36,800 nt of DNA from an uncultured Alphaproteobacteria bacterium (GCA_963541805.1 CAUTVF010000002.1:1-36800), one strand, 5' to 3'; numbered from the stretch's first letter, positions 392 to 19,205 are shown. Made by a program: numbers and translations. Notes: a model not told the origin generated them from the sequence alone.

Positions 392-1114
392 TTAAGAATC
401 CAAAATTGATTTTATAAGAGAATCATTTTTGATATCGCGCAAATCTAAATTTTTGGAATCCAAAAATCTTGCATATGAATTATCGATTAAATCCGTTGTA
501 TTGTAATAGTGACATTTTATATTTTGATAAGCACACTCGCTAAAAATCCTTGGATGCTTATCAAAAACATTTGTATTTTTGATATATACAAATTGATTAA
601 AATTTTTAAAAAAATCACCAGTATATGAAGTTGTGAGTCTGAAGTTATTATTGAAGTCCATAAATTTATACGGTTTAAACTGATTTGCTATTTTAAAATC
701 TGGCTTAAAGCATCTTATATATGTGCAATTTGAATGTTTATAAATTTTATGAATATCGAAGTATAATTTGTGGGTATAATTTCGGAATCTAAAGAATTCA
801 TCGTAATATTCTATTCCACTATAATTTACTAAATCGTGTGAAATGCATATTTTTCGGTTTGCATTAATTTTAAGTAAATCAGAACTATTAAAAGCCAGGG
901 CGGTATCATATTTACCGGAAGTATCAAAAATTATTGAATCAAAGCATTTAGAATCAATAGAATATTTTAGATTTAAAAAAGTTTCATTAAATATCGGATA
1001 TTTTAAAATTAAATAAGTATCTTTATTAAATTCCCAAAGTCTATAAAAATACTCAAATGCATCAAATGCAGTTCCATTTAGAACATTTAAAAAATTTAAA
1101 ACTGCTATTTTCAT
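392..1114 (-). CDS. hypothetical protein, distant paralog of ORF 5973-6827
   Basis: 240-aa ORF. It shares colinear blocks with 5973-6827: FDAFEYFYRL vs IFECLDYYYLL, and FDKHPRIFSECAYQNI vs FDCSPRLIIECQILQI. Confidence 0.6.
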   Translation of the reverse strand: MKIAVLNFLNVLNGTAFDAFEYFYRLWEFNKDTYLILKYPIFNETFLNLKYSIDSKCFDSIIFDTSGKYDTALAFNSSDLLKINANRKICISHDLVNYSGIEYYDEFFRFRNYTHKLYFDIHKIYKHSNCTYIRCFKPDFKIANQFKPYKFMDFNNNFRLTTSYTGDFFKNFNQFVYIKNTNVFDKHPRIFSECAYQNIKCHYYNTTDLIDNSYARFLDSKNLDLRDIKNDSLIKSILDS

Positions 1115-3204: not shown

Positions 3205-4079
3205 AAAAAGCTTCTTTTAAATTCAGCATAGCACAGCAAATTACATTTACTCGTGTCACACGCAATTTTGTTTCTTGCTGAAATTTTGTATTTATAATCA
3301 GTATTTAAATCAGCTAAAACCGTAAAATCCTTACAAGACCAAAATAATTGTAATTTTTCGTCAATATCAAATCCATCTGGCTCGCAAATACATTTTTTAC
3401 CTTGGAGATTTAATAATTTTTTAATATATTCGGATTGCGAAACTAATTTTGAATTTATATAAAATTCATCAACATTCAAATTTCTTTTAACTCTATCCAT
3501 ACTAAAATTTTCAAATATAAAATTCATAACTTCCTTATATTTTTCAGTTCCAACAAGTTGGGACAGTGGAGAAATATTTAATTCACCATTTATTAATTTT
3601 GCAATTTGTTTATATTGATCTAAATATGGAATAATATTTTCAATCCTATCAATTGGTAAATTCATATTTACAACACCGTCCCACGAATTTAAAAAATTAA
3701 ACGTCTTTTCAAAATTAAAATATTTAATATGAGGACTAATCGTTACAATTATTTTTGGATTTTTAATTATTTTTTCTAAGTTTGATGTATTTGTAATAAT
3801 TTCGACGACTTTAATATTATCGACTTCGCAAAGTCTTTGGAGTTCCAAATCAAAATCTTTTATTAATGTTGGCTCTCCGCCAAGAATTGCAATAAGAAAA
3901 GTGAATTCGGAATTAAATTTTACAAAATCAATTATTCTATCGAAATAATAATGAGTATCAAAATATTTTTTATTCAATCTTGATTTCGCAAAACAATATG
4001 AACAATTATAATTACAAAACATACTAGGATATATGTCAAGTGAAAAATCAATCGGATTTTTTGCTTCAAATACTGTCAT
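3198..4079 (-). CDS. radical SAM protein with Cys-rich C-terminal (SPASM/twitch-like) extension
   Basis: CNYNCSYC motif and GGEPTL motif. The C-terminus carries seven Cys (KKCICEP, WSCKD, CDTSKCNLLC). The start overlaps the polB-N stop (ATGA). Confidence 0.85.
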   Translation of the reverse strand: MTVFEAKNPIDFSLDIYPSMFCNYNCSYCFAKSRLNKKYFDTHYYFDRIIDFVKFNSEFTFLIAILGGEPTLIKDFDLELQRLCEVDNIKVVEIITNTSNLEKIIKNPKIIVTISPHIKYFNFEKTFNFLNSWDGVVNMNLPIDRIENIIPYLDQYKQIAKLINGELNISPLSQLVGTEKYKEVMNFIFENFSMDRVKRNLNVDEFYINSKLVSQSEYIKKLLNLQGKKCICEPDGFDIDEKLQLFWSCKDFTVLADLNTDYKYKISARNKIACDTSKCNLLCYAEFKRSFLC

Positions 4080-5695
4080 ATAAGTTTTCTAGATTCCAAT
4101 TCTTTTTTAATTTCTGCCGCTTTATTGCGATGTCCAAGCATTTTCAATTTATATCTTTTTCTATTGTTGAAACCGGCTTCAATTAATTCTGGAATAATAC
4201 CTTTTTTTGATTTATCAAAATGTGTTCCAAATAGCGATCCGCATAAATTATACTTTTGCAGCAATTTCGAATATTTATCAAATCTATGAGTATCCTTGAA
4301 ATATTCATTAATGTGATATAATTCGTCTTCGCTTAAATTTAGATTTTGGATTTCCAATTGCAAATCTTTTGGCAAATCTTTGAATTCCACTAATGTTTCT
4401 GGACTAATATTAAATGCCATAATTTGAGATGGATACATACTATTGACATCAAGAGAAAAGCCATAATTACATTTTCCTTTTATTGGATCCATTACAAATC
4501 CGCCTTTTAATTGAATACCAGAAGTATCCTCTGCCTTCATATCATACGATGGTAATATTTGTTTTTTGAGATACGCAGAATTGGCAATATATTGAGCCCA
4601 CGGCATAACAGTTTTTACAGTATCTTTAATATTAACTCCGTAAATTTCTGCCATATTTGTCATTGTATTAAAAATACTCAATTTTAATTCTATTTTATTT
4701 AATATATATACATCAATAATTGCGTAATGAATAAACCATTTATTGCATATTTTAGATATTTCAGCTTCTGATTTTGCATTATATAATTCAAGTTCAAAAG
4801 CTCCCGTTGGCTTAGAATCTGGTCTAATATATCCAGAACCTGTTCGAAATCCGTCGAAAGTTTTGAAACAGTCGTGATTTACTTTTTTAAGTCCGACCTC
4901 GACTTCTGCAATATTGTCGAGAGAATACGAACTTTTTGGCTCAAAATTAAAGTTTTTATAAACTTTCATATAATCAATATACGAAATACCTGGTGAATCA
5001 ACTTCAAAAATTCCTTGATTTAAAACTAATTCATTTAATTTTGATTCTCCATAAGGACTAAAATTAAGTGGAATTCCAAGTTTTGTTGCTCTTGCAAATA
5101 GATATCCGAAGTCAAACCCTTCTCCGTTATATGCAGAAATTATAGCTGGATTTAATGTTTTTATTAGCTTAAAAAATGCAAGAATTAATTCGGCTTCTGA
5201 ATTTAATTTAAAATATTTTAATTTAAAATCAAATACTTCTCCATTAAATGTATAATTACCAGATTCGGATTCCGTATAATCAATTCCTTTGATAAAATCA
5301 GTTAAACTAAAAACAATTACAGTATTTGTTTTTGAATCATAAATCTGGATACATACAATAGTTTCAGGGAATGATTTAGTATCGACGGATCTTTTTGCGG
5401 TTGTTTCAATATCAAGAAACCAATATCTTGGAGATTTGTTATAATTTTTTTGCCAATAAAAATCGCGAATATAACAAAGATCCGGTTTATAATTACCATA
5501 AACTGGTAAATCAGTTTTTTTAGTAATGCGTCGAAGTTTAATTTCAGGATTTAAAAAATATGTAAAATCACCTGAAATGTCCTCAACATACCGTTCATTA
5601 AAGCTTGGAATTTTCTTTATTTTTGATTGATTTCCGTCAAAATATCTTATATAATAATCATAACCAATTCTAAAACTATTTTCAAATGCTTCCAT
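4076..5695 (-). CDS. gp43: family-B DNA polymerase, N-terminal fragment (3'-5' exonuclease domain, motif A, first half of fingers)
   Basis: ExoI FLDIETT, ExoII YNGEGFDFGYL, ExoIII YAIIDVY and Pol motif A LDVNSMYPSQI are present. The ORF ends before motif B. Confidence 0.9.
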   Translation of the reverse strand: MEAFENSFRIGYDYYIRYFDGNQSKIKKIPSFNERYVEDISGDFTYFLNPEIKLRRITKKTDLPVYGNYKPDLCYIRDFYWQKNYNKSPRYWFLDIETTAKRSVDTKSFPETIVCIQIYDSKTNTVIVFSLTDFIKGIDYTESESGNYTFNGEVFDFKLKYFKLNSEAELILAFFKLIKTLNPAIISAYNGEGFDFGYLFARATKLGIPLNFSPYGESKLNELVLNQGIFEVDSPGISYIDYMKVYKNFNFEPKSSYSLDNIAEVEVGLKKVNHDCFKTFDGFRTGSGYIRPDSKPTGAFELELYNAKSEAEISKICNKWFIHYAIIDVYILNKIELKLSIFNTMTNMAEIYGVNIKDTVKTVMPWAQYIANSAYLKKQILPSYDMKAEDTSGIQLKGGFVMDPIKGKCNYGFSLDVNSMYPSQIMAFNISPETLVEFKDLPKDLQLEIQNLNLSEDELYHINEYFKDTHRFDKYSKLLQKYNLCGSLFGTHFDKSKKGIIPELIEAGFNNRKRYKLKMLGHRNKAAEIKKELESRKLI

Positions 5696-5955
5696 TATTT
5701 ACTTTCGTTAGCTTTAATACGCTTTAATTCTCGATTTGCAAACCAAATAATCTTATTTAAATCGCGCTCATAGTCTGTTCCAGAATGTCTTCCGATATTA
5801 CAACACCAAATTGATTTTAATATGTTGCCTTGGGCAAAATTCATTTCAAAATGCTCAATGATATCCTGAACATTTTTTGCATTTTGTGGAATATCATAAT
5901 ATGGAGTATCAGAACCTTTTACCATTTTTATACCTTTTTGTTTTAATTTTACCAT
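5695..5955 (-). CDS. DUF3310-like small phage protein
   Basis: YYDIP...GNILKSIW...DLNKIIWFANRELKR matches the DUF3310 pattern. The internal ATG at 5925 has the better SD (AAAGG) and may be the true start. Its stop overlaps the polB-N start (TAATG). Confidence 0.5.
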   Translation of the reverse strand: MVKLKQKGIKMVKGSDTPYYDIPQNAKNVQDIIEHFEMNFAQGNILKSIWCCNIGRHSGTDYERDLNKIIWFANRELKRIKANESK

Positions 5956-5972
5956 TTAAAAGTTTACGATTT

Positions 5973-6827
5973 TTATGCATTAAGAATATCAATTATTGGA
6001 TCGCCCGTAGTAAGAACGAATTCCTCAAATGGCGAATCAAGTCGCCTTTGTAGTCCTGGATCATAATAATCGATCTCAAAAAGTTCAAACGGAATTTGTA
6101 ATATTTGACATTCTATTATAAGTCTTGGACTACAATCAAAATGTCTTAAAACTGGAGTATAAATGAATTTACTAAAACTAAAATTACGGATTTGTTTCGA
6201 AGTAAAATTATTTTTATATTTTTCATTCTCCGTAATATCTTTAGAATCAGAATAAGCAAGAATATCCGGATATTTGTTCAAAAGTCTATCAATTTGATCC
6301 GGAGTTAATGATTTACAATTTTTTGTAATATGTGCAAATGGCCGATCTCCCGGAATTCTTTTTAAATTTGGCAATATTTTTTTAGTATAATCAATCATAT
6401 TTGGATACCGTTGATTGTATACTTTAAAATCAGCAAGTATCGAATAATCGGCATTTATTGGATCTGCGCCGCAGGCGAATACAAATATTTTTCCGCAAAG
6501 ACGATTTCTATATTTTTGAATAAACCAAAATCCGCCATCAACTATTAATATTTTTTTGCATTTCAATAAATCAAAATAATTTGTAAAAATGAAATCGGAT
6601 TTGTCAAATTTTACATTATAATGTGATTTTACAAAAGAATCAAAAGTTTCCGGCTTTACGAGCTCCGGAATTAAAACTTTTACTTTCATATGCTTAGATA
6701 GCAAATAATAGTAATCTAAACATTCGAAAATATGTCCCGAAAGACCGTGTTCTCTTGGACTTCGGAGAGTCGGAGACATTTCAAATGACGTTAAAATTAC
6801 TAAATCTGCATCTAAGTTAAGAATCAT
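5973..6827 (-). CDS. hypothetical protein, distant paralog of ORF 392-1114
   Basis: 284-aa ORF tightly packed in the operon. Shares blocks with 392-1114. Confidence 0.6.
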   Translation of the reverse strand: MILNLDADLVILTSFEMSPTLRSPREHGLSGHIFECLDYYYLLSKHMKVKVLIPELVKPETFDSFVKSHYNVKFDKSDFIFTNYFDLLKCKKILIVDGGFWFIQKYRNRLCGKIFVFACGADPINADYSILADFKVYNQRYPNMIDYTKKILPNLKRIPGDRPFAHITKNCKSLTPDQIDRLLNKYPDILAYSDSKDITENEKYKNNFTSKQIRNFSFSKFIYTPVLRHFDCSPRLIIECQILQIPFELFEIDYYDPGLQRRLDSPFEEFVLTTGDPIIDILNA

Positions 6828-6828
6828 T

Positions 6829-7266
6829 TTAATAAATCACAATATAATCATTTTTTGAGACTTGAATTGTTTTGAAATCCTTGAAATCGTCTAGCTTATC
6901 CGCCTTACAATGATACCAAACATCGCGTTTATGAGCATTATAAAATTCGGAATCGAACTCAAACCATTTCTTTCCAAACAATTCAACAACTTTACCAAAC
7001 TTACAAAAATTAGGATCAAATCCAAAATTGCGTTTTAGATACGCAAGCGGGAGTAGTCGACTAAAATCTGTAAAATCGGTAATTTTATGTTTAAATGGAT
7101 TTTGGACACAGTCAAAAAATCTGCAATTACCAATTTTGATTACTAGTCCAGCGTCCTCAAAATCCGGATTCTTTTTAAATGCCATAATAAGCCAATTTTT
7201 TGTAACATTTAATTTTTTTTGCGCTTCGTCAATATAAACGAAGTTTGAGTTTATAAACATACTCAT
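6829..7266 (-). CDS. hypothetical protein, possible N-terminal helix-turn-helix; first gene behind a promoter cassette
   Basis: 145-aa ORF with SD AAAGGA. The N-terminal segment VYIDEAQKKLNVTKNWLIMAFKKN looks like an excisionase/MerR-type HTH. Confidence 0.5.
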   Translation of the reverse strand: MSMFINSNFVYIDEAQKKLNVTKNWLIMAFKKNPDFEDAGLVIKIGNCRFFDCVQNPFKHKITDFTDFSRLLPLAYLKRNFGFDPNFCKFGKVVELFGKKWFEFDSEFYNAHKRDVWYHCKADKLDDFKDFKTIQVSKNDYIVIY

Positions 7267-7323
7267 TTAAATCCTTTCTTTTTTATTAGAATTATATAAT
7301 ATTAAAACTGAAATTTCACGTAA
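7267..7323 (-). promoter_or_regulatory. conserved promoter and leader cassette (GTGAAA, 17 nt, TATAAT, SD GAAAGGA), copy 1
   Basis: Minus-sense sequence: ttacgtgaaatttcagttttaatattatataattctaataaaaaagaaaggatttaaATG. The -10 box is at 7291-7296. Confidence 0.5.
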
Positions 7324-7346
7324 TTTAAATCGGTTGTTTTTAGCGC

Positions 7347-7381
7347 GTAGACGTAGTGCCTCTAAGATTTAGTTTGATCCC
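7347..7381 (-). promoter_or_regulatory. 34-nt conserved upstream motif, copy A (80 nt upstream of ATG 7266)
   Basis: Plus-strand spelling: gtagacgtagtgcctctaagatttagtttgatcc. Confidence 0.6.
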
Positions 7382-7482
7382 TTTTGATTTAATTATAATA
7401 TATTAAAGTTTACTAATTTTATGCATAAGCATATTTTTAGTATTTTAATTTGCGATTTTAAAAATGCAAAATTTTACACCTA

Positions 7483-7498
7483 TAACATTTAAATGTAA
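7483..7498. repeat. 16-nt palindrome family, copy 3 (TAACATTTAAATGTAA)
   Basis: One mismatch. Lies inside the 7267-7670 cassette. Confidence 0.55.
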
Positions 7499-7583
7499 AA
7501 ATTGTAATTTTTTGAATTTTTTAAACCGAGATTTTAATTTTTTTACGAATTTTAACCGAAGGTTTGGATTCGTTATTTTAAGA

Positions 7584-7649
7584 GCGCCATACCAGAATTT
7601 TTTGTTTTATTATATAATATATAATAAAATGAATTTAATTTCCGGCTGC
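7584..7649. repeat. core long palindrome, copy 2
   Basis: gcgccataccagaatttttt...tatataatatataataaaa...tttccggctgc. Confidence 0.7.
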
Positions 7650-7659
7650 TTTCAAAAAT

Positions 7660-7674
7660 TTAGCCGAAGGCTAA
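7660..7674 (-). terminator. mini-hairpin terminator candidate overlapping the stop codon of the ligase-like gene
   Basis: TTAGCC-GAA-GGCTAA, followed on the minus strand by ATTTTTG. Confidence 0.4.
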
Positions 7675-9110
7675 GATTTTGAATTTTTAAATATTTGGAG
7701 TAAAGAATTATAGAATTTATGAATTTCTTTTGGAGTATTTGCTTTAAAAAATTCGAAATTGTCAATCGAATCAATCACCTTGCTTGCAGAAATTGCACTC
7801 GAATTTCTCGGAGTTTCAACGACTTTTACTCCAGGTAAATATTTTGCAACTTGATTGGAATAGTCCTCAAATCGATCAGTTCCGCATAAAATAACATTTA
7901 TATTAATTGGACATTTACTAACAATACTTGGCAAATATCCAGAATTTACATTTATAATGTCAATACTTGGGAATGCTGCTTTTAGCATTTGATTTCTAAT
8001 AATTTCATAATTTTTTGTTTCCTTATTTGAAACAAGTGCAATTACTCCGCCATCATATTTTTTTAATCCATTTTTAATAATATCATAGTGAGCGTTTGTT
8101 AAAATTCTCATTTTACCTAAAAATAAGAAATTATTATTTCCCTCAAAATGCTGAATTAATTTCTTTTTTGCTAAACTTTGAATATCGTCTTTTATTTGAG
8201 TTAAATTTTTCTTTGGATGCTGAAACGTTATTTTATAATTCTTTATTGCATTTGAAAGGTTTATGAGCGAGTCAGAAATTTGACCTTTTAGCGGAATTCC
8301 ATTCAATAATAAATCTGCCGATTTCCCAACAAAATTCCAATAATCAGATTCTGTTGTAGAATCGGCTCTCCATTTGTCTTTTATAATTGCTCTTGCTGCT
8401 TGATCGACTTGATAAGATTGTTGAATTTTGACTTTATAATTTGGATAATTTAAAACAACACCTTCTTCCTTGCCTCCAAATTTTGAATCCAAATCAAGCA
8501 ATATTTTTGAAACTTCTGATATGAATTCCAAACAACTTTCATATGAATCTAAATCCAATTTAACTTTGCATTTAAAATCTTTTAAGAAGCCCTCAAAAAC
8601 AACCGGAGGTTCCGGAATTCTAAGTATTTTAGAATATTGACTTCTTAATGCAGTTTCAAATCCAGAAGCATTTGATTTTACAATACCATTTGAAATTCTG
8701 ATTGAACTGCTTGAATAAGCAAGAATTGTTAGGCCGTGTTTTGAATAATTTGAACTGAGAGTCGGCTTCTTCATTGCGAATTCACAAAATATTTCTGTAT
8801 TTATTGGAATTGATTTATAATTTGAAATTGTTTTTAAATGATCAAAAATTAATTTAAATTGTGAATTAGCAATTGAGCTAGTTCGGATTTCAGAATCAGT
8901 TGAATAACTATATTCATTTGGATATTGAATCTGCCCTTTATATGCAACAATAAAATCTTTTAATGGATTTCCAGAATTATCAATATGGTATAGTGATATT
9001 TTAACACCATCTATTTTTTGCTCGATTTTTACTGGATTTGTCAGTAGTTCAATAACTTTTTTATAATTATTTAAATAATTTGAAATAGGTTTAATCGAAA
9101 TATCGAGCAT
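7671..9110 (-). CDS. ligase-like covalent nucleotidyltransferase fused to an HxGH/ISxT-type (cytidylyl/adenylyl-transferase-like) C-terminal domain
   Basis: Ligase motifs: I KIDG, III EIFCEF, IV EEGVVL, V YKVKIQ. The C-terminus has FLGKMRILTNAHYDII (degenerate HxGH) and SAISASKV (ISxT-like). Ends in the rare stop TAG. Confidence 0.6.
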   Translation of the reverse strand: MLDISIKPISNYLNNYKKVIELLTNPVKIEQKIDGVKISLYHIDNSGNPLKDFIVAYKGQIQYPNEYSYSTDSEIRTSSIANSQFKLIFDHLKTISNYKSIPINTEIFCEFAMKKPTLSSNYSKHGLTILAYSSSSIRISNGIVKSNASGFETALRSQYSKILRIPEPPVVFEGFLKDFKCKVKLDLDSYESCLEFISEVSKILLDLDSKFGGKEEGVVLNYPNYKVKIQQSYQVDQAARAIIKDKWRADSTTESDYWNFVGKSADLLLNGIPLKGQISDSLINLSNAIKNYKITFQHPKKNLTQIKDDIQSLAKKKLIQHFEGNNNFLFLGKMRILTNAHYDIIKNGLKKYDGGVIALVSNKETKNYEIIRNQMLKAAFPSIDIINVNSGYLPSIVSKCPININVILCGTDRFEDYSNQVAKYLPGVKVVETPRNSSAISASKVIDSIDNFEFFKANTPKEIHKFYNSLLQIFKNSKS

Positions 9111-9136
9111 TTAAAATCCTGGAAATTTTAAATTAT

Positions 9137-9790
9137 TTATTCAAATGTAAATAATTGTGCAACTCTATAATATATTTTCTTATGATAACCTGCAGTTTGG
9201 GAACCATAATAACGCATAAGCATTGATTCGGTAATATTTTTTGCTTTTGGTAATTTTGGTAATTTTTTAAGTTCATTTAAAATAAAGGCAGAGGCAGCAA
9301 CATTTGCTTCTATTTCAAACAAATCGGATCTTATTTTAGCAATGTTAGCATTTCTAAGTTTAGTTCCCCAAAATTCCCATACAACTCCGCCAAGACCAAC
9401 TGCTTTTATTTTCTTATTTAGGCTTTTGATATATGTCGAATTGTGCTCGATCTTTGGATGCATTTCTGATTCTGTTTTTAAAACAGCATAAAGAATACAA
9501 GGATCAACATCATAAATATCACTATATTTGAATATACTTGACATTATTTCGGATTTTTCGGATTTTGATAAATGATTATAAGAATCCAAGTCAGATTGCA
9601 TTGCGACTTGATAATTTTTTGTGAAATCAATATAATTCTCGTAATATGCATTTTTTAATGCGAGAAAAGCGAGATCAAGTTTAATAGTATTATTATGCGT
9701 AGTCTCTGGAACTGATGCAATTGAGAGTTTTACAAAGACGCATAATATAATTATTAAAACGCCTAAAACTCCGTAATTGATTTTACTCAT
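9137..9790 (-). CDS. membrane-anchored lytic transglycosylase (SLT-domain-like), candidate endolysin
   Basis: N-terminal hydrophobic anchor INYGVLGVLIIILCVFV. Also LKTESEMHP (catalytic E-S) followed by VGLGGV. Confidence 0.5.
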   Translation of the reverse strand: MSKINYGVLGVLIIILCVFVKLSIASVPETTHNNTIKLDLAFLALKNAYYENYIDFTKNYQVAMQSDLDSYNHLSKSEKSEIMSSIFKYSDIYDVDPCILYAVLKTESEMHPKIEHNSTYIKSLNKKIKAVGLGGVVWEFWGTKLRNANIAKIRSDLFEIEANVAASAFILNELKKLPKLPKAKNITESMLMRYYGSQTAGYHKKIYYRVAQLFTFE

Positions 9791-9961
9791 TTTAGGTATT
9801 TCCTTTTAAAACTATTTATTTTTTGTATTTTTAAATATTACAAAATTGCTTTGTATATTTTAAAATTAACAAAAATTCAATGTAACTTGAAATGTTTGTC
9901 AATTTTAAATTTTTAAGAATGCAAAAATATAACAAAATTGCTTCATAGAAAGGGCATTTTG

Positions 9962-10261
9962 TCAATCCCAAAACTTATTTAAATTATCGCGATAAAGATT
10001 CCAGAAGTTTTTCCAACGAACTTCACACTCTTCAGCAGATCCTTCTAAATCGATTATTTTTTCAAGCATTTCAATTAATTCGTTAATTGTTACCAAATCG
10101 TTTTCAAAACCTTCATAGTGGCATTTATTCCAATAATCGCGTTTTATTTTAAGTTGAACTAGTAGTAAGTCCAAATCAAATCCATAATCATACCAACGGT
10201 AACTCCAAATGACTTTGAAAAATCGTTTAAGCATTTTTAAGCTATCAAAGAATTGCTGCAA
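9962..10261 (-). CDS. hypothetical protein (TTG start)
   Basis: 99-aa ORF. The start codon is TTG, preceded by AGGAG with a 6-nt spacer. Confidence 0.5.
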   Translation of the reverse strand: MQQFFDSLKMLKRFFKVIWSYRWYDYGFDLDLLLVQLKIKRDYWNKCHYEGFENDLVTINELIEMLEKIIDLEGSAEECEVRWKNFWNLYRDNLNKFWD

Positions 10262-10274
10262 TTTGAACTCCTAT

Positions 10275-10424
10275 TTTAAGAAGTGCAAAGAAAAAAGTTG
10301 TCATTATAAGCATATTTAATATTAATACTATAAAAGTATTTTTAATTTCAAGAACCAATAACTGCGCAACAAATAATGCAAAGGATATAAAAACCAAAAT
10401 AAAAATATAAGCAAATAGTAACAT
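10275..10424 (-). CDS. 49-aa hydrophobic micro-protein (two predicted TM segments); not in the ORF track
   Basis: My translation: MLLFAYIFILVFISFALFVAQLLVLEIKNTFIVLILNMLIMTTFFLCTS. SD AAAGGAT lies 6 nt upstream of the ATG. Confidence 0.4.
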
Positions 10425-10436
10425 TTCAAAATCCTT

Positions 10437-10505
10437 TTAGAAAACATAAAAACTAAAAATAAGCAGCGCCGCTAAACAAACAAATAAAAGATTCGGCTCA
10501 AGCAT
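10437..10505 (-). CDS. 22-aa hydrophobic micro-protein; not in the ORF track
   Basis: My translation: MLEPNLLFVCLAALLIFSFYVF. SD AAGGAT overlaps the stop of the preceding micro-ORF. Confidence 0.35.
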   Translation of the reverse strand: MLEPNLLFVCLAALLIFSFYVF

Positions 10506-10507
10506 TG

Positions 10508-10585
10508 TTAATCCTTTGATGCAGTATAAATTGTAAATAAAACGACAAAAAATGTGCAAATAATTGCAATAGAATTTGTATCCAT
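10508..10585 (-). CDS. 25-aa hydrophobic micro-protein; first ORF behind a promoter cassette; not in the ORF track
   Basis: My translation: MDTNSIAIICTFFVVLFTIYTASKD. SD GAAAGGAT lies upstream, with a TATAAT box and the 34-nt motif further upstream. Confidence 0.35.
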   Translation of the reverse strand: MDTNSIAIICTFFVVLFTIYTASKD

Positions 10586-10664
10586 ATTAAATCCTTTCTT
10601 TTGATTGTATTATACCTAAATTTAGCTTAAAAATCACTGAATAAAAATATAGATTTTAAAATAA

Positions 10665-10699
10665 GTAGACGTAGTGCCTCCAAGATTTAGTTTGATCCC
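10665..10699 (-). promoter_or_regulatory. 34-nt conserved upstream motif, copy B (79 nt upstream of ATG 10585)
   Basis: gtagacgtagtgcctccaagatttagtttgatcc. Confidence 0.6.
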
Positions 10700-10932
10700 T
10701 TTTGAATATTTATTATATTCAAAAAAAGTTTACTTAATTTTATGCCTCGCATTATAAAAGTTAATTTTTTGATTTTTAATTTGGGATTTATAAAAATGCA
10801 AAATTTTACTAATTTTATACTAAAGTATAATTTGAGTAATTTTTTGATTTTTAATACAAGTTTGAATTTTTAAATGGATTTTGATTTTTTTTACGGAATT
10901 TAAACGGAGATTTTAAGTGCGTAATTTTTAGA

Positions 10933-11002
10933 GCACCATACTAGAAATTTTTATTTTATTATATAAATTTATATAATAAAATAAATTTAATTTCCGGTCG
11001 CC
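10933..11002. repeat. core long palindrome, copy 3
   Basis: gcaccatactagaaattttt...atataaatttatataataaaa...tttccggtcgcc. Confidence 0.7.
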
Positions 11003-11090
11003 TTCAAAAAATACTTATGAAATGCATAAGCATAAAATTAGTAATTTTTTGATTTGTAGATTCAAAATTTAGTAGTTAGAATATTGAAAA

Positions 11091-12146
11091 TTAATCAAAT
11101 GAAATATTGTTATAAATTTCGAATTTAAATCGAATTTTATATTTTGTCGGTAATTTGGAAGATTCAGATTCTCCAAGTTCTGGAACTTGTAAATTTAAAT
11201 CTAATTCAGGATTTATATCAAATCTTGCAACACTTAAAAAATCCAATTCAGAAATTGTTACTTTTAATAAGTCATTAAGTTTTAAAAAAATCGGATTTGA
11301 ATTAAAAATATATTTTGTATCTTTTAGTGCAAACGAATCTGGTAACTTTTTTAAATCAGTATGATAAATTTTTGAGCCATTAACACTATAATATAATGTA
11401 TATTCGGCATCAATTTCAATTGTAGATCCAGCCGGAATTTTATTCAAATCCGGATTTATTCGAAATCCATCGGAATCTAAAATTCTAACAATTTCATAAT
11501 TTGAGCTTTTTGAAAGTTTAAAAAATTGAGGCTCAAATACCGCAGTTTCATATAATTTTGGCATTTTAAATATTTCGGATGCAATTGGATCATCAATTCC
11601 AGAATCTGCATAAAATAGTTTTGTATAATCAGTATTTAATGTATCCGCATCCTCGATATCCGTATTCAAATCATTTATACTAATTGGGAATTCGCGAGAT
11701 TCAAAATCAACAGTATCAACATTTAAATCGTCTAATATTTTAAATTGATAAGTTTCATCGAGTTTAGTTGTATCAATAAAATTCTCAAATTTATCAACAG
11801 TGTCATAAATATCAACATATCCTGATTTCCATCCATAAATGCTTTGATAAAATCCTTGCTGAACAAATCCAAAACTATCATAAATTTTTGGAATATTATC
11901 ATTTAATGAAAATGTTATTAGATTTCCAAAGTTTTTATGAAGCTCTCCGTTAATTTCAAAAGTATCATAAATAAAAAGTCCAGAATTTCCAACATATTCA
12001 ACGGAACCGCTAAAATCTAAATTTCTGCCATTTACATTAAAATGTGAAACTACAGGATGATAGTAATGCGCGAATATTTTTTCGGATTCTAAATCTTTTG
12101 AATATTTCACATATCCAGAATTGCGAAACCAAGGATCAAAAGACAT
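11091..12146 (-). CDS. virion structural protein (baseplate/fibre operon), function unknown
   Basis: 351-aa ORF, last in the baseplate operon. Its frame stays open upstream for 41 codons to the TAG of the preceding ORF. Confidence 0.6.
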   Translation of the reverse strand: MSFDPWFRNSGYVKYSKDLESEKIFAHYYHPVVSHFNVNGRNLDFSGSVEYVGNSGLFIYDTFEINGELHKNFGNLITFSLNDNIPKIYDSFGFVQQGFYQSIYGWKSGYVDIYDTVDKFENFIDTTKLDETYQFKILDDLNVDTVDFESREFPISINDLNTDIEDADTLNTDYTKLFYADSGIDDPIASEIFKMPKLYETAVFEPQFFKLSKSSNYEIVRILDSDGFRINPDLNKIPAGSTIEIDAEYTLYYSVNGSKIYHTDLKKLPDSFALKDTKYIFNSNPIFLKLNDLLKVTISELDFLSVARFDINPELDLNLQVPELGESESSKLPTKYKIRFKFEIYNNISFD

Positions 12147-12269
12147 TTTAGTTACTTCATTTGACGCAAAATCGGCGCTTTTGAAATCCTTTAAAACTTG
12201 CTTTGCAATTAAATCACTATTAAAATAACTTTCAAGTCTTTTTGAATTTCTAAAATTTATTTGATACCA

Positions 12270-13832
12270 CTATGAATCTCTTGTTGATTTACTATCAAAA
12301 TAGATATCCGGTCTAAAAGTAATCGATTCCATTAATAAATTATTAGAATCTCTTAATTCTATTGTATGATCTGCTGCGTCCAATTTTGGTATTTTAAATT
12401 TACCTGATTTAAATTGAGCTTCTGAAATTTCAAATGTATTTGAATCAATACTTAAGAAAAATGGGAATGTATCCGATTTTTCAATATTTGGAACATAAAA
12501 ATATACGTAATTTTTTAAAATCCTATCAAATATTGGCCTTATTTTATTTCTCGAAAGTCTATAAAGTGCTTTAAAATCAGACGGCTTTAGAGATCCGTTA
12601 ACAACTCGAGTTCCATATGAAACATCAGCAGTCGGGAGTCTATCCATTCCGAGTTTCCAATTTTTTGATCCTACAAAAACATTACCTGCGCCAACAACTA
12701 TTTTATTACCTGCAGTTTCTGCAAGACCAAAATCAAATTGAAATGATACTAAATCTTTTACTGATGTAACAATTTTAGAAGTATATGCAAGCTCAATTGC
12801 GCAATGTTTTGATTCAACTGGATATATTTTCTTTTCTTTAAATGGCTTTGAAGTTCCTAAAGGATAATAAAGAATTAAAGATCTTGGCTTTGAGATTTGA
12901 ACTAATCTTTCTCCGGATTCAAATTCAATTGTCAATGTTTTAACACCTTTTGATTCAACTTTATCAATTGATTTTATTGTATTATTAATGACTAATTTTA
13001 AATCTTCAAAATCCTCAAAAATACTATAAAATTTTCCAAATCTGGTAACATCCTTTTTAATTTTTGAATCGCAAACTATTTTAAGGGATTTTTTATTGTT
13101 ATATAATGTTTCATTTTTAAGACCAGTTTGAAATAAAAATCCAGTATTTGCTTTAAAGTCATCGGTAATGCCAGAATCACAAACAATTCTAAATGTTGTA
13201 ATATCAAATATTTCTTTGCTTAAAAAATAGTCTTTCCATCGAAGCTCATAAATTCTAAAATATATGTAAGCCCATCCAACTGGATGGGACAAAACTTTTA
13301 CGTAACTTTCAAAAATCTCTGGAAGCATTTCGCCTTCGACGATATATTCCAAAACATTTGGGCCTTCGTATATTTTGAATGCATCCGAGGTTTCAAGAAC
13401 TCCTTGTTCTAATGAAAATTTATTAATCAAATGATATATATATTCAATTGAATTAAATGTTCCTTTAGTTTGTCCGAATATTTTCCAAGTTTGGAGCATT
13501 TCTGAATTTAAATAATCAATTACATTGATATCAATTACTAAATCTTGCCATTTTTCATATTTTACGTGCTTATGATATTCTTTTAAAATATCAAGCAATT
13601 TATGATTGTTATTATTATCAGTTATGCACTTGTAAAAATCTGCAGCATATGTTTTTATAATTTCCTCATAAAGAACTGGATTTCCTGAATCAAATAATGC
13701 TTTAATATCAACGGAGACTTTTGAATGTTTCCAAATAAAATCAACGAAAACATCCATTGTATCCTTTATAAGTTTTATATTTTTAAAATTTTCTGGAATT
13801 ATTGCTTTTATTGCTGCTTTTGAATATGCCAT
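12270..13832 (-). CDS. virion structural protein (baseplate wedge operon), function unknown
   Basis: 520-aa ORF immediately downstream of the gp6-like gene. Ends in the rare stop TAG. Confidence 0.6.
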   Translation of the reverse strand: MAYSKAAIKAIIPENFKNIKLIKDTMDVFVDFIWKHSKVSVDIKALFDSGNPVLYEEIIKTYAADFYKCITDNNNNHKLLDILKEYHKHVKYEKWQDLVIDINVIDYLNSEMLQTWKIFGQTKGTFNSIEYIYHLINKFSLEQGVLETSDAFKIYEGPNVLEYIVEGEMLPEIFESYVKVLSHPVGWAYIYFRIYELRWKDYFLSKEIFDITTFRIVCDSGITDDFKANTGFLFQTGLKNETLYNNKKSLKIVCDSKIKKDVTRFGKFYSIFEDFEDLKLVINNTIKSIDKVESKGVKTLTIEFESGERLVQISKPRSLILYYPLGTSKPFKEKKIYPVESKHCAIELAYTSKIVTSVKDLVSFQFDFGLAETAGNKIVVGAGNVFVGSKNWKLGMDRLPTADVSYGTRVVNGSLKPSDFKALYRLSRNKIRPIFDRILKNYVYFYVPNIEKSDTFPFFLSIDSNTFEISEAQFKSGKFKIPKLDAADHTIELRDSNNLLMESITFRPDIYFDSKSTRDS

Positions 13833-16800
13833 TTATTTTCTTTCAATAAAATCATCAACATTATCAATAAAGAAATCTTTGAGAACTTCGTAATCAGTTA
13901 AATCATCAAATGTTATTGATCTCAATTTTAATAGTGAATTTCTAATTAATTTAAAGTTATCCGATGGATATTTTAAAATAAAATCCCTATTTGAATTAAC
14001 AACAGAATTTTGTAATTTAATTCTAATGTATGGAATTCTACCATTAAAAATTGTATATACTCCAACTATTTTCGAAGTTTTAAAATCCTTTATTGGGAAT
14101 TTAATATAACTTACTTTGCTAATATTTATAACACTTAATTCTTTCTTATCAATAATATATGGAATTAGATTTTTAATATTTGCATCATTTAATTCAAAAT
14201 CTGGCCCGACTAAACTAGTTACTTTTGATTTAAATTCTTTAGTTGCAGACTCCCATTTTGAATCTTCAATCTTATTGAAATAAGGTTTAGTATCACTAAA
14301 ATTTTTAATATCTGCAATATTACCAAAATCTTTGTGAATTACTTCATAGAGTATAGGCAAATTATCGGTAATTATTTTATTAGAACTATCAAAAATACCT
14401 TCTGGAGGTAAGTCCAAATAAATATATACTCCGCCTGGCCCTTCTTGTATCCTAATATCATATTTTGCTTCTTTTACAAAAACATCAATATTTTCTGAAT
14501 ATGGAACACCATTTGAATCGGTATAATTCAATGTAAAATTCGTCTTATTTGGACTTCTATAATTTTTAAGAATTATATATGGGAATTCATAAGTTAAAAT
14601 ACTATTATTTGGCAAATCAACGGATATTTGGCCTTTATCAGTAGCATAATTGTAAATTAAATTTCTGACATCGAATTTATTTTCATAATTTATAAAAAAT
14701 TGAAGTTCAGTTTTCTTAATTTTTGGAATTCTATCATATGTTTTAATTGGATTATATTCAGTTATATTTGAAAGATTTCTATTATAATATCCTAAACTAT
14801 CGTTTTCAACTGGAATAATTCTATTTAATTTTAATAATTCAGCCGGATAAATTCCAATTGATGCTCCATTTTGACTTTCATAAGTTGCAAGAGTTACTGC
14901 TAATTTTGTATCTCTCAAAACAACTGAAATTACCTTTTGATTTAGCATTTCCTGAGTAATTGAAACAACCTGAGTTTCTCCATTTGCTGTTATCTCAATC
15001 GTATCATTTACTTTTGCTTTTTTGCCAACCCAAATATTAACAATTTTTGAATCTCCGGATTCTTGAATATTATAATAAACATCGTCTAAATCAAAATTTT
15101 TAAATACATTATTTTGGTCTTGAGTAGCTTGTCTTGCTTCTGCTTCTGTTAATTTTGGAGATCCTAAAATTTGATTTTTGTATAGATCATTATTTTTATT
15201 GCCTTTTTCTACTTTATTGCTTTCAAAAATTACCTTATATGAATTAGCAGTCACAACACCAGCAAAATCTGCTCTGTGAATATCAGTATAAATTACAAAA
15301 CCACTCTGAATATCATCATATGTAAGAGTAAAAGTTTTCAAAATTTGTGGAACATTTTGATTTCCGTAAAGGCCATAAACATATATTTTATCACCAATTC
15401 TTGCATAATTTCCGGTAAATATTTTTAATTCGCTTGTTTCCTTATTTGTTTTAACACTATAAAAAATATTTTTATTTTTAAAATTATATAAATTAATATT
15501 TTTTGCAATTAATGAACTTCCGGAATAGCTTCTCAAAACTACCGAAATATCATCAGATACAACAGAATTATCCTTAAAATAAAAAGTTTTAGCATTTGAA
15601 CTAACATCATTTGGGGTTATAGTATATTTAAATTCTTTTTTCTCAACTCCATCAATTATAATTGTTTTATTAAAATAAAATGTAATAATATCACCAATTT
15701 CGGACAATGCAGAAATATTTAAACTAACAATTAAATTTTTTGTAATATCATCGTATTTTTGACTATAAAAACAGTTATCAGTTCTAAAATCTTTAATTTC
15801 CTCAAATTTTTGAGTCTTATTATTTTTATTTAAATTAATTGAAAAATACGGTTTAATTTCAACACCATTAGAAATACCAAGTTTTGTATCGACATATCGG
15901 ACTAAATTTGAAATAACAAACTCACTATCAAAATTTGAATTAGATTTAAAATATTCTTCAATAGTTTCAATTATTTGATTTCTTACCTCAATTTGGCTTA
16001 AATTATTTGGATATCTTTTGACATTAACTCTTAAATCAGTATCAATGTAAATTGGATTTTTAATATTATTACCAAGAGCTGGTAAATTATATTTGTCAAT
16101 TAAATCAATTATTCCGTTATTGTAAACAACTCCGTTTGATACAGAACTTGATGTAAGTTCAGAAATTAGTGGATATCTTTGAATATCCGAATTCCATTTT
16201 GAATCAATATTATATAAATTACTTGGAGTATTTGTGCTTGAATTTACTTTGCTATAGACATAAGTATTCGCGTTTAGATCAACTTCTTTTTCAAAATGCT
16301 CAATTTTATTTCGAACTCTTTTTGGCTTAATTGAAAAATATAGTTCGCCTTTTTGAATAGGATACTCATCCTCGCCGCCCCAAGTTTTAAAAGCTTCAAC
16401 GGAGTTATGAGTTTTTGCAATTGCACCATAATCATAAACAGTAACTGCTCTCGACGCCGAATTATATAGAAGTGGTGCATTATTTTTGATGCTTTCGATA
16501 TCCTCAAAATTTTGTCCTCTTTGGACAAATATATTTGTATTTTTCGTTAAATCAATTTTTGCGAAACTTGCTACATTTGAGCTATTGATACTTGCTGAAT
16601 TTAATGAATCAAAATTTCCGTCGATTCCAGAACTTCTCAAAACATTTACACGAATTCTTGCATTGTTTGGTAAACTATTTCCATAACTGCCAATTTTAAA
16701 ATAAAGGCGGCAATTACCAGTGTTAATATCATCTTTGCGAATATAAAAATTATTAAAATTATCTTTAATATCGACTAAATTTAAACTTCTTTTTTTAAAA

Positions 16801-17258
16801 ACAACTGAATCATAAAAACTTCCAAAATCATCATAATATGTTACGAGAACTTCGCAGCCGTCGTCTTCTACATCAGAAAATGGAATATCGATATATTCGA
16901 ACTTTTCGTTAATTCTATAGTTTAAAAAATCATTGGCAGATGCAAGTAATAATGTTCCTTCTTTAAGTTCAATTTCAATTGAATCTCCAACAGCATTTAC
17001 TTTTTGAACAATATCATCTCCAAAATATGTAAATGTGAGTCCATTTAGATTAAATTGGGTGTGTTTTGGAATTGTAAAAACACCAGTTCTTGTAAATTCA
17101 AGAGTTATTTTTACAATTGCAGATTTTACTTTTGATGCTTCATAACTAAGGATTCTTGCGTCTTGTAAGACATTATCGCGTTTTCTTGCAAGATGAAGTA
17201 TATTTTCATTTATATTGACTGCAGTATTAAAATTAAAAGAACTGAGAGCGTAGCTCAA
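13833..17258 (-). CDS. baseplate wedge protein, gp6 / Baseplate_J-like (large)
   Basis: The N-terminal region LARKRDNVLQDARILSYEASKVKSAIVKITLEF fits the Baseplate_J pattern. The track start is a TTG. The in-frame protein-like sequence continues upstream to 17372. Confidence 0.7.
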   Translation of the reverse strand: MSYALSSFNFNTAVNINENILHLARKRDNVLQDARILSYEASKVKSAIVKITLEFTRTGVFTIPKHTQFNLNGLTFTYFGDDIVQKVNAVGDSIEIELKEGTLLLASANDFLNYRINEKFEYIDIPFSDVEDDGCEVLVTYYDDFGSFYDSVVFKKRSLNLVDIKDNFNNFYIRKDDINTGNCRLYFKIGSYGNSLPNNARIRVNVLRSSGIDGNFDSLNSASINSSNVASFAKIDLTKNTNIFVQRGQNFEDIESIKNNAPLLYNSASRAVTVYDYGAIAKTHNSVEAFKTWGGEDEYPIQKGELYFSIKPKRVRNKIEHFEKEVDLNANTYVYSKVNSSTNTPSNLYNIDSKWNSDIQRYPLISELTSSSVSNGVVYNNGIIDLIDKYNLPALGNNIKNPIYIDTDLRVNVKRYPNNLSQIEVRNQIIETIEEYFKSNSNFDSEFVISNLVRYVDTKLGISNGVEIKPYFSINLNKNNKTQKFEEIKDFRTDNCFYSQKYDDITKNLIVSLNISALSEIGDIITFYFNKTIIIDGVEKKEFKYTITPNDVSSNAKTFYFKDNSVVSDDISVVLRSYSGSSLIAKNINLYNFKNKNIFYSVKTNKETSELKIFTGNYARIGDKIYVYGLYGNQNVPQILKTFTLTYDDIQSGFVIYTDIHRADFAGVVTANSYKVIFESNKVEKGNKNNDLYKNQILGSPKLTEAEARQATQDQNNVFKNFDLDDVYYNIQESGDSKIVNIWVGKKAKVNDTIEITANGETQVVSITQEMLNQKVISVVLRDTKLAVTLATYESQNGASIGIYPAELLKLNRIIPVENDSLGYYNRNLSNITEYNPIKTYDRIPKIKKTELQFFINYENKFDVRNLIYNYATDKGQISVDLPNNSILTYEFPYIILKNYRSPNKTNFTLNYTDSNGVPYSENIDVFVKEAKYDIRIQEGPGGVYIYLDLPPEGIFDSSNKIITDNLPILYEVIHKDFGNIADIKNFSDTKPYFNKIEDSKWESATKEFKSKVTSLVGPDFELNDANIKNLIPYIIDKKELSVINISKVSYIKFPIKDFKTSKIVGVYTIFNGRIPYIRIKLQNSVVNSNRDFILKYPSDNFKLIRNSLLKLRSITFDDLTDYEVLKDFFIDNVDDFIERK

Positions 17259-17386
17259 AATGCTTGTTAATGCAGCAATATTTGATCCGTCATACGGAGC
17301 GTCATATCCGAGTTCTATAAAGCGTTTTGAAATATCTTTATAGATATCATCATTCTTTGATTTTTGCCATTTTTATACTTTTTATT

Positions 17387-17394
17387 TATTTATG
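17387..17394 (-). promoter_or_regulatory. late-promoter-like box CATAAATA upstream of the baseplate operon
   Basis: Lies 16 nt upstream of the ATG at 17370, which is out of frame with the gp6-like ORF. Confidence 0.4.
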
Positions 17395-17430
17395 ATTTTA
17401 ATATTTTAATATTTTAATATTTTAAAAACA

Positions 17431-18081
17431 TTAAATATTATTGGATTTCATATATTTTGCTTTCAATGAATCAAAATATTCATCGTTTACTAGCGTTATA
17501 AAATTCTTTTTAGCACTATTAAAGAAATTGAGAGCCTCGTCTACAATTGCCTTCATTTTAAGTTCATCATCTGTTATTTCGATTTGCGAAATTCCATTTA
17601 GATACATTTGATAAAGTTTTTCATAATTTGTTAATAATTCAGTAACTTTAAGAAATTCTTCTAATTTTTCAGTTAGCGCTTCATCGTCTTTTTCAAGGAT
17701 CTCAATATATTTTTCTTCTCTATTTTCATTTGTAATGAATATTCCATTTGATGCAAAAATATTATTGAGATATTGGTATCGATAATAATTATAACTTGGA
17801 ATAGTTGTAAAAATCTCAGACATTTTTGCAGTTAATGTTTGGAGATATTTTGCGCGTTTAAAATTTCCGCCGTCTCCGATATTTAAACATTCCTTGGTAA
17901 TTTTATCAACATATTTGTAAAATGTTATTGTTTTTTGCTCTGCAAGAAGTTCCAAAATATACACAAATAGATCAGAATCCTCTATTTTTATGGTGCGAGT
18001 ATTCGGAAGTCTTTGGGTATTTGTAATTTGAGCAGAGCAAATTAAATAAAAATCATTTTGCTCCAAAACTGATATATACAT
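17431..18081 (-). CDS. hypothetical protein
   Basis: 216-aa ORF with a helical acidic C-terminal half. No motif recognised. Confidence 0.55.
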   Translation of the reverse strand: MYISVLEQNDFYLICSAQITNTQRLPNTRTIKIEDSDLFVYILELLAEQKTITFYKYVDKITKECLNIGDGGNFKRAKYLQTLTAKMSEIFTTIPSYNYYRYQYLNNIFASNGIFITNENREEKYIEILEKDDEALTEKLEEFLKVTELLTNYEKLYQMYLNGISQIEITDDELKMKAIVDEALNFFNSAKKNFITLVNDEYFDSLKAKYMKSNNI

Positions 18082-18139
18082 TTATTAACCTTTTCTATTA
18101 TTTATTTTTAATTTATTTTAATTCAATTTATATTTTAAT

Positions 18140-18658
18140 TTAATAAACTTTCAACTGGAATTCTATCGTTGCCGAAGACTTCAAATCCCTTGTGTAACAA
18201 ATATTTCTTAAAAATTGGATTTTTAAAATCTTGATTATATGGAAGCAATATGCATTTGCCGGCAATTTCATCATTTTAAACCATTCTAAACACTTGTCAA
18301 AATCCGTTTTAAAATCAATAAAGTTTTCAAAATACTTATGCTCATATCCGTGCATTCCTAATTTAATACCTAATTTTTGCAATTCATAAATCTGATATAA
18401 ATTCATATAATATTGAAAATCGCCTCTAAATGCGTGCTCGTGTGCAAAAGCACAATGAATAGAATCCGGATTTTGATATGTATTTTTATTATAAATTGTT
18501 GCTGTTAAAAATATATAAATTGGCTTTTTAAATTTTAAAAAATGATGCATATTTAAATATTGGGAGTTTAAACAATCATCAAATGTTAAAATATCGAAAT
18601 TACTTAAATCCAATTTAAGAATCGCATTTGTAACTTCGTGAATCATTAGTGTTTTCAT
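18140..18658 (-). CDS. polysaccharide deacetylase (CE4/NodB-type), apparently frameshifted near the 3' end
   Basis: Motifs ILTFDD and HGYEH (HxxxH). The C-terminal 40 aa of the track ORF look non-native. The -1 frame gives LLPYNQDFKNPIFKKYLLHKGFEVFGNDRIPVESLLN, ending at 18135. Confidence 0.6.
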   Translation of the reverse strand: MKTLMIHEVTNAILKLDLSNFDILTFDDCLNSQYLNMHHFLKFKKPIYIFLTATIYNKNTYQNPDSIHCAFAHEHAFRGDFQYYMNLYQIYELQKLGIKLGMHGYEHKYFENFIDFKTDFDKCLEWFKMMKLPANAYCFHIIKILKIQFLRNICYTRDLKSSATIEFQLKVY

Positions 18659-18712
18659 TTTGATATTTTATAATGTTTTAGTTTAATTTTTAAACGGAGA
18701 TTTAATTTTTAA

Positions 18713-18746
18713 GTAGACGTAATGCCTCTTGAATTTAGTTTGATCC
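18713..18746 (-). promoter_or_regulatory. 34-nt conserved upstream motif, copy C (54 nt upstream of ATG 18658)
   Basis: gtagacgtaatgcctcttgaatttagtttgatcc. Confidence 0.6.
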
Positions 18747-18892
18747 TTTTTAATATTTATATTTTATAATATTTTAGTTTACATTTTTTAAAAAATTACT
18801 AATTTTATGCTTCGTATTATAAAAGTAAATTTTTGATTTTTTGATTTTAATACGATTTTTAACCTACGGTTAATAAATTTGCAATTTTAAGC

Positions 18893-18961
18893 GCACCATA
18901 CCAGAAAATTTATTTTTATTATAATAATATTATAATAAAATAAATTTAAATTCCGGTTCGC
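18893..18961. repeat. core long palindrome, copy 4, flanked by ~43-nt inverted arms (18851-19008)
   Basis: gcaccataccagaaaattt...ataataatattataataaaa...ttccggttcgc. Arms: tacgatttttaacctacggtta... and ...aaccttcggttaaaaatcgta. Confidence 0.7.
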
Positions 18962-19115
18962 TTAAAAATTACGAATCTAAACCTTCGGTTAAAAATCGTA
19001 AAATTTTGTATTTTATAAAATCTCGATTACAAAATTATAAAAAATTCAAAATCTTAATCATTTTACATCCAAATGTTAAATTATTAATTTTTTGCAACTT
19101 TAATATGATATAATT

Positions 19116-19149
19116 GGATCAAACTAAATTCAAGAGGCACTACGTTTAC
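19116..19149 (+). promoter_or_regulatory. 34-nt conserved upstream motif, copy D, inverted (56 nt upstream of ATG 19206)
   Basis: ggatcaaactaaattcaagaggcactacgtttac, the reverse complement of the other copies. It faces the plus-strand spike gene. Confidence 0.6.
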
Positions 19150-19181
19150 TCGATTTTTAATACTTAAATCTTTGTTTAAAA

Positions 19182-19189: not shown

Positions 19190-19205
19190 TTTAAAAAGCT
19201 TAAAA

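Follow-up and report, generated by a model that had tools for sequence, protein, structure and literature searches.

Anatomy of the two polymerase genes

The window analysed here, that is, the whole stretch of 36,800 nucleotides (nt) of GCA_963541805.1 (CAUTVF010000002.1:1-36800), filed under an uncultured Alphaproteobacteria bacterium, contains a T4/RB69-type family-B DNA polymerase (PolB, gp43 in T4) which is divided between two open reading frames (ORFs) far from each other. Translation agreed with an initial annotation of this DNA in the position of both ORFs and in all motifs quoted for them, and placed both on the minus strand:

4076..5695, minus strand: PolB N-half (gp43A-like), 539 amino acids (aa)
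28076..29134, minus strand: PolB C-half (gp43B-like), 352 aa

The N-half carries Exo I (FLDIETT), Exo II (YNGEGFDFGYL), Exo III (YAIIDVY) and motif A (LDVNSMYPSQI) and terminates with ...KKELESRKLI*; the C-half starts with MEINEL... and carries motif B (KVMINALYGAL), motif C (YADTDS) and KKRY. The motif set A, B, C and KKRY of a T4/RB69-type polymerase is thus complete, albeit spread over both halves. At the level of domains, the N-half comprises the N-terminal domain, the 3'-5' exonuclease, motif A of the palm and the first of the long fingers helices, three residues past which it ends; the C-half has motif B on the second fingers helix, motif C in the palm, KKRY, the thumb and a C-terminal tail whose last residue is an invariant W. 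The tail at the C-terminus of T4 gp43 is clamp-binding. When an artificial concatenation of the N- and C-halves was aligned with 33 one-piece homologues, D95, E97, D195, Y324 and D328 were present and invariant, and every catalytic residue of both halves fell in an invariant column. Nothing essential is absent from the pair.

The Campylobacter phage polymerases were matched by the two halves in tblastn with E values of 3e-141 and 7e-96, and the homology to phage polymerases is far above chance. Residues 1-530 of the N-half share 45% identity with the Campylobacter phage polymerases, and residues 8-352 of the C-half 48% with the CP220/CPt10 polymerase. The Pfam families DNA_pol_B_exo1 and DNA_pol_B both scored over the cut-off, and the alignments with RB69 gp43 covered RB69 residues 90-503 for the N-half and 554-895 for the C-half. 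PHROGs keep a separate family for each half, and both families match end to end: the N-half falls into phrog_2062 (the split N-half family, with a match reaching position 500 of 502) and the C-half into phrog_1918 (the split C-half family).

Break point and structure model

Residue 533 of the N-half corresponds approximately to RB69 residue 503 and residue 27 of the C-half to RB69 residue 554, and in the alignment with the one-piece relatives the free ends of both halves map to the length-variable tip loop. These positions place the break in the fingertip loop between the two long fingers helices. On CPt10 the two matches abut, that of the N-half stopping at nt 103734 and that of the C-half beginning at nt 103735, which agrees with the earlier statement that nothing is missing at the break. 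The companion statement, that nothing is extra either, holds approximately: the tip is about 20 residues longer than in CP220 and the closest one-piece relatives, a length still within the range of the family, and longer tips were found in several one-piece relatives.

The same concatenation was used as input for AlphaFold2 and gave a model with a predicted local distance difference test (pLDDT) value of 88 and a predicted template modelling score of 0.80. Helices 500-536 and 547-582 flank the join at 539/540, and residues 540-542 form one of only three segments of the model with pLDDT below 50, the join being the only low-confidence loop in the fingers region. The top Foldseek match of the joined model was apo RB69 gp43 (1ih7) with a template modelling score of 0.81. 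According to this model of an artificial fusion, the joined halves would make up one complete RB69-like fold with N-terminal, exonuclease, palm, fingers and thumb domains, as expected of a complementary pair; the RB69 alignment, the joined model and the position of the join in the tip loop all bear out the initial assignment as a PolB split at the fingertip.

Related strains and selection

An exact look-up of the two window proteins in the contig index gave no match. Clusters of the two halves at 90% identity comprised 28 and 29 sequences, and through their members related strains were reached in other samples and in the output of other assemblers (megahit k141 contigs, a scaffolded ENA assembly and Logan contigs). 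The most informative was contig k141_103045 of ENA ERZ27319293 (109,908 nt), in which the C-half (approximately 107,846-108,904) and the N-half (approximately 83,159-84,778) lie on the same strand of a single contig, 23,067 nt apart, and which is colinear with the window over both junctions. One junction was covered by scaffold_120 of ENA ERZ28633974 (160,222 nt), where the neighbours flanking the C-half are the same as in the window, and one junction each by Logan contigs from ERR8507581 and SRR27172594 with window-like neighbours. The related contigs are 88-96% identical to the window in DNA and thus come from different strains; because contigs from different strains are colinear across the junctions, the misassembly considered in the initial annotation is excluded.

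Against strains of about 92% identity, the N-half had a ratio of nonsynonymous to synonymous substitution rates (dN/dS) of 0.034-0.046 and the C-half one of 0.035, at a dS of about 0.30 in each case. The low and nearly equal values imply that both genes are functional and evolve at the same rate; purifying selection is equally strong on both halves. As to an intact polB elsewhere in the genome, also raised in the initial annotation, no second homologue was tied to the 110-kilobase (kb) or the 160-kb contig among the matches at E<=1e-30.

The strains differ in several small respects. Forms of 565 aa carry a 26-aa insertion after N-half residue 307 (gene 1833-3530 of locus L001, residues ~308-338), in the loop before Exo III, and the range of 535-565 aa among the cluster members suggests that this loop varies in length. 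Small-ORF insertions or deletions beside both halves are strain-specific (L006 9449-9685; L004 8360-8818): a 78-aa ORF upstream of the gp121-like gene described below and a 152-aa ORF upstream of a 284-aa gene were each seen in a related strain only, the window being without them.

Gene neighbourhoods and transcription units

The spacing between the two ORFs is 22,380 nt (5696-28075), with the C-half transcriptionally upstream, so that the separation of about 22.4 kb on one strand was reproduced both here and, with the 23,067 nt given above, in a second strain. The features around and between the halves are as follows:

392..1114, minus strand: gp116-like gene, homologue of CP220 gp116 (tblastn)
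2596-3204 and 3198-4079, minus strand: two tandem radical-SAM genes, directly downstream of the N-half
5695..5955, minus strand: 86-aa gene directly upstream of the N-half (ORF list)
5956..28075: stretch separating the 86-aa gene from the C-half (PHROG matches and small ORFs)
9137-9790: transglycosylase/endolysin-like gene (PHROGs)
13833-17258: gp6-like baseplate wedge, 1141 aa (PHROGs)
19206-20192: gp5-like hub/lysozyme (PHROGs)
21651-23561 and 24119-25726, minus strand: tail sheath and second sheath-like gene (PHROGs)
27956..28075: AT-rich spacer of 120 nt behind the C-half stop, where the C-half transcription unit ends
29125..29655, minus strand: two small genes of 67 and 101 aa, which form one short transcription unit together with the C-half
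29656..29933: intergenic DNA from which the C-half operon (minus) and the tail tube gene (plus) diverge
18754-18761 (minus), 19182-19189 (plus), 25849-25856 (minus), 29779-29786 (minus) and 29911-29918 (plus): gene-upstream TATAAATA sites

Both halves belong to compact operons in which start and stop codons overlap. The stop of the 86-aa gene overlaps the ATG of the N-half by 1 nt, an arrangement of translational coupling, and this neighbour is kept in the assemblies from other samples. At the other end, the N-half stop overlaps the start codon of the first radical-SAM gene (ATGA), again with translational coupling. The radical-SAM genes fill the spot where the C-half would be expected in a one-piece or adjacent-split gene, and their junction with the N-half was also found in the related-strain loci L001, L004 and L005. 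In the C-half unit, the 101-aa ORF, a homologue of CP220 gp121 (50% identity, tblastn), overlaps the C-half start codon by 10 nt. The Pfam scan found no domain, intein or endonuclease in the 67-aa and 101-aa ORFs. Past the C-half stop, the spacer is convergent with a plus-strand gene at 26591-27955.

PHROG matches confirmed that sheath, baseplate, gp5-like hub and lysis-like genes lie between the halves; the block also contains a tail-assembly gene and small membrane ORFs. The two sheath-family genes (636 and 535 aa) are separated by 0.5 kb and fall into different sheath families of PHROGs. The order of the halves had been called permuted. The C-half is indeed upstream, but the word means little if the map is circular or circularly permuted, as assumed from T4-like phages in general; C...N would then amount to N...C read through the remainder of the genome.

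The divergent region 29656..29933 has one TATAAATA, the T4 late-promoter consensus, on each strand and may act as a promoter region. Over the whole window (27% guanine plus cytosine, GC) 9 such sites were found against 12.8 expected, i.e., the motif is not enriched. Five of the nine are upstream of genes, within or bordering intergenic DNA; two of them stand 16-17 nt ahead of the gp5-like and tail-tube start codons, and one is directed toward the C-half operon. Scans for sigma-70 promoters and terminators performed no better than on shuffled sequence at 27% GC and were uninformative.

Search for joining elements

Consistent with the initial annotation, Pfam showed no intein or homing-endonuclease domain in the halves or the small ORFs beside them, and PF14890 matched neither the N-half nor the C-half. 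There are no splice-junction residues at the termini ...SRKLI* and MEINEL..., and Rfam gave no intron or other RNA family in the window. The longest word common to the 3' end of the N-half and the 5' end of the C-half was 12 nt, a length reached or exceeded by 17% of random segment pairs. A recombination/excision model received no support from repeats at the gene ends and was rejected.

An intein domain is carried by many relatives of approximately 730 aa. An intein at the fingertip was considered for these proteins and rejected, as it follows DTDS in motif C and the fingertip is continuous. A polymerase apparently in three pieces occurs in a relative of 48% identity, IMGVR_UViG_3300000035_000017 (33,115 nt; loci L003 8863-10924 and L011 10001-11584): its C side consists of a 218-aa piece with motif B and the N-intein, two small ORFs and then a 307-aa piece with the C-intein, motif C and thumb, the N-half being about 23 kb off on the opposite strand. 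Locus L195 (7263-11375, Logan SRR10504711_659) is a classic fractured gene, with a first ORF of 738 aa (PolB up to motif C plus N-intein), a free-standing 332-aa ORF without Pfam domain in the middle and a 302-aa ORF with the C-intein and the rest of PolB.

Occurrence of widely separated halves

A profile scan of IMG/VR worked for the N-half; the profile scan with the C-half was swamped by generic T4-like polymerases, and specific C-half proteins were used instead. Single-protein scans of IMG/VR returned no close relative. The 80 IMG/VR loci examined as relatives of the N-half were distributed as follows; in those not listed, the flanks were too short for a verdict or the match to the N-half was truncated:

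12 loci: one-piece polymerase
about 35 loci: C-half adjacent
8 loci: insert of 0.8-2.5 kb between the halves
13 loci: no C-half within at least 8.5 kb on each side, on either strand

Distances were measured in three lineages with both halves located on the same contigs:

lineage of ~48% identity to the window: ~23 kb between the halves, on opposite strands; C-half further broken by an intein
lineage of ~39% identity: 83-84 kb between the halves, on contigs of 173-178 kb
lineage of ~30% identity: 68-70 kb between the halves

Wide separation is therefore not unique to the window, and the earlier remark that the halves are adjacent in other phages holds for the published T4-like phages but not for these three uncultivated lineages, where they are 23-84 kb apart. 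In IMG/VR, at least five lineages carry the halves at more than 10 kb from each other. A rough neighbour-joining tree scatters this separated state over five or more distinct positions, interspersed with one-piece and adjacent forms, and in two of these clades no cultured phage of INPHARED exceeded 42% identity. It is conceivable, although we regard it as rather unlikely in this full form, that uncoupling is recurrent and stable, was reached independently in at least five uncultivated T4-like lineages, and that the heterodimer self-assembles without operon-linked co-translation. If so, separate placement might time or dose replicase assembly, e.g., with the C-half expressed from a late-type promoter in the tail module.

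Comparison with known split polymerases

Bicistronic gp43 genes were reportedly described by Petrov et al. in 2006 and 2010 in Aeromonas phages 25, 31, 44RR and 65 and in Acinetobacter phage 133. The window shares with these 43A/43B genes the polymerase family, the fingertip break point and the arrangement as two ORFs with no intein. In the published split gp43 genes of T4-like phages the N-half comes first and the C-half follows next to it, at a distance of 2 bp to 3 kb (PMC3061061, PMC2677866), whereas in the window 22.4 kb and an entire tail module separate the halves, which belong to different transcription units, the C-half being the upstream one. Since the break is at the known 43A/43B site, the novelty lies in the genomic uncoupling and not in the split: a split in the fingertip is already known for T4-related phages, and its wide separation into different transcription units is new. 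In the literature searched, no phage with gp43 halves far from each other was described.

The closest named relatives are CP220 and CPt10 (Eucampyvirinae, Firehammervirus; 45-49% identity), which have the QueC, gp116-like, SLT and gp121-like genes in common with the window and a similarly low GC content, but in which the polymerase is a single ORF of 882 aa. CP21, F379 and CJLB-13 have insertions inside the polymerase gene, with the parts kept together. Fractured genes (Nanoarchaeum PolB, cyanobacterial DnaE, phage MIJ3) use trans-splicing inteins at other sites; a fractured polB occurs in relatives of the window phage (motif C inteins), but the halves in the window are intein-free.

The split PolB of Methanothermobacter thermautotrophicus is said to have been described by Kelman et al. 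in 1999. Its two genes are, according to PMC3061061, 85 kb apart and form an active complex without splicing, the break lying in the palm, ~83 residues C-terminal to the fingertip site. A palm break of this kind is absent from the window, where the break is N-terminal to motif B. In PMC3061061 and PMC2677866, the Methanothermobacter PolB is the only one described as widely separated, in contrast to the T4-like genes. In the artificial split of the archaeal Pfu polymerase (Hansen et al., 2010), made in the equivalent loop, separately made fragments regain activity; the enzyme came from one bicistronic clone, and the C-fragment needs the N-fragment for solubility (PMC3061061).

Assembly, origin and alternative explanations

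On the observed anatomy, conservation, gene arrangement and absence of joining elements, we consider it probable (roughly 0.8) that the replicative T4 gp43-type polymerase of this phage is made as two separately transcribed and translated polypeptides which assemble non-covalently, following a break at the fingertip and a later uncoupling of the halves. The exonuclease domain, motif A of the palm and the first of the fingers helices would come from the N-half; the C-half would contribute the other fingers helix with motif B, motif C of the palm, KKRY, the thumb and the C-terminal tail. The two fingers helices would pack as an antiparallel hairpin, and a palm made from both chains would imply a large interface. 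Assembly and activity of the heterodimer may be expected by analogy with gp43A/B of phage 25 and with split Pfu: PMC2988022 (citing Petrov 2010) states that 43A and 43B of phage 25 co-purify and are polymerase-active, and Pfu split at the fingertip and refolded from separate fragments behaves like the wild type (PMC3061061).

Several points weigh against this interpretation. The AlphaFold2 input was an artificial fusion in which the proximity of the chains is imposed by design, and the model therefore speaks for complementary halves and is no proof of their association. The isolated Pfu C-fragment is insoluble without the N-fragment (PMC3061061), and translationally uncoupled genes might accordingly assemble poorly. 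Finally, the window covers 36.8 kb of a genome of roughly 160 kb, and a second polymerase might lie elsewhere.

The last point would also suit the view that the halves are decaying pseudogene fragments and that replication relies on another phage-encoded or a host polymerase. Such decay is very improbable with dN/dS of 0.03-0.05 in both halves at dS of ~0.3, all catalytic residues kept, an operon context for both genes, no further polB homologue tied to the 110-kb and 160-kb contigs (matches at E<=1e-30), and the uncoupled state stably kept in several other lineages. That a metagenome assembler broke a single polB and misplaced the pieces might be suspected, the window evidently being a metagenomic contig with no cultured match and an AT-rich genome (27% GC); yet the 88-96%-identical contigs from other samples and assemblers run colinear through one or both junctions, and each ORF is bounded by a proper start and a proper stop codon in overlap with the adjoining genes, which reduces the probability of an artefact to practically nil.

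A further alternative is a union of the halves after the DNA level by a split intein, RNA trans-splicing or a programmed DNA rearrangement excising a circle. Split inteins are present in polB of relatives, and the C-before-N order would put the N 3' end beside the C 5' end on an excised circle. The inteins of the relatives, however, sit at motif C (DTDS|) and not at the fingertip, neither half has an intein signature at the ends ...SRKLI* and MEINEL, the longest common word of 12 nt is equalled or exceeded by 17% of random pairs, and Rfam gave no intron or other RNA family, all of which makes joining extremely improbable. A less remote, still improbable alternative is that the halves are partly independent, e.g., with the N-half alone acting as an exonuclease, and that their locations set timing or dosage and thereby regulate polymerase assembly. 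Such roles would agree with the C-half forming a separate unit of three genes within the tail module, with the N-half belonging to another operon, and with a T4-late-like TATAAATA on each strand of the divergent region upstream of the C-half. Against them stand the lack of enrichment of this motif (9 found, 12.8 expected), the uninformative sigma-70-type scans at 27% GC and the equal rates at which the halves evolve, as would suit an obligate complex.

For the preferred reading, a heterodimer of separately made chains, the origin may be sketched in two steps: the gene would have been broken at the fingertip loop, and one half, most simply the C-half, would then have been relocated by ordinary genome shuffling. 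The fingertip loop is a known hot spot for insertions. A split followed by translocation of the C-half seems the simplest reading of the order, and tandem duplication with reciprocal loss would also yield C...N. A simple insertion of the tail module between halves already split would have left the order N...C and was rejected, the observed order being C...N. The gp116-like gene lies directly after the polymerase C-terminus in CP220, in the fractured-gene relative L195 and in L174 of the 39% clade, and 3 kb downstream of the N-half in the window, where it thus marks the ancestral downstream flank. In CP220, gp121 is found 3.5 kb downstream of the polymerase; its homologue in the window is directly upstream of the C-half. 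Gene order round the polymerase differs in every relative examined (CP220, L192 and L195 among them), and because of this shuffling a unique rearrangement path cannot be fixed. The two steps would match 'genomic uncoupling', the last step of the gene-breaking model of Dassa et al. (2009; PMC2677866), and intein-free phage examples support that step of the model.

Adjacency of split genes is usually assumed to aid balanced expression and co-folding. Here an essential replicase would be obtained from two genes in different transcription units 22 kb apart, and up to 84 kb apart in other lineages, which offers a natural test case for obligate heterodimers assembling without operon linkage. The arrangement is also a warning for annotation and for polB phylogeny and marker surveys, in which such halves would be called as a truncated polymerase or counted as two genes.

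Other genes of the window

Scans of the window for tRNAs, Rfam families and tandem repeats gave nothing relevant. For a 309-aa product (1241-2170, minus strand), the match to the major head protein family is confined to the C-terminal part of that family; the orthologue in L004 is matched by Pfam Gp23, and the protein is far shorter than a normal gp23. The ORF at 36089-36787 (minus strand), cut by the end of the window, corresponds to a 322-aa actin-like protein in a related strain (L006 1927-2895) with the Pfam domains ALP_N, MreB-like_C and Alp7A-like_C, i.e., a plasmid-segregation-type actin in a T4-like phage. Genes of the QueC-like, PTPS (QueD-like) and QueF-like types were located at 35409-36065 (minus strand) in the window, at 19721-20257 in L004 and at 4129-5004 in L192; their occurrence in the phage and its relatives, as in CP220, suggests a 7-deazaguanine-modified DNA which the split polymerase would have to copy.

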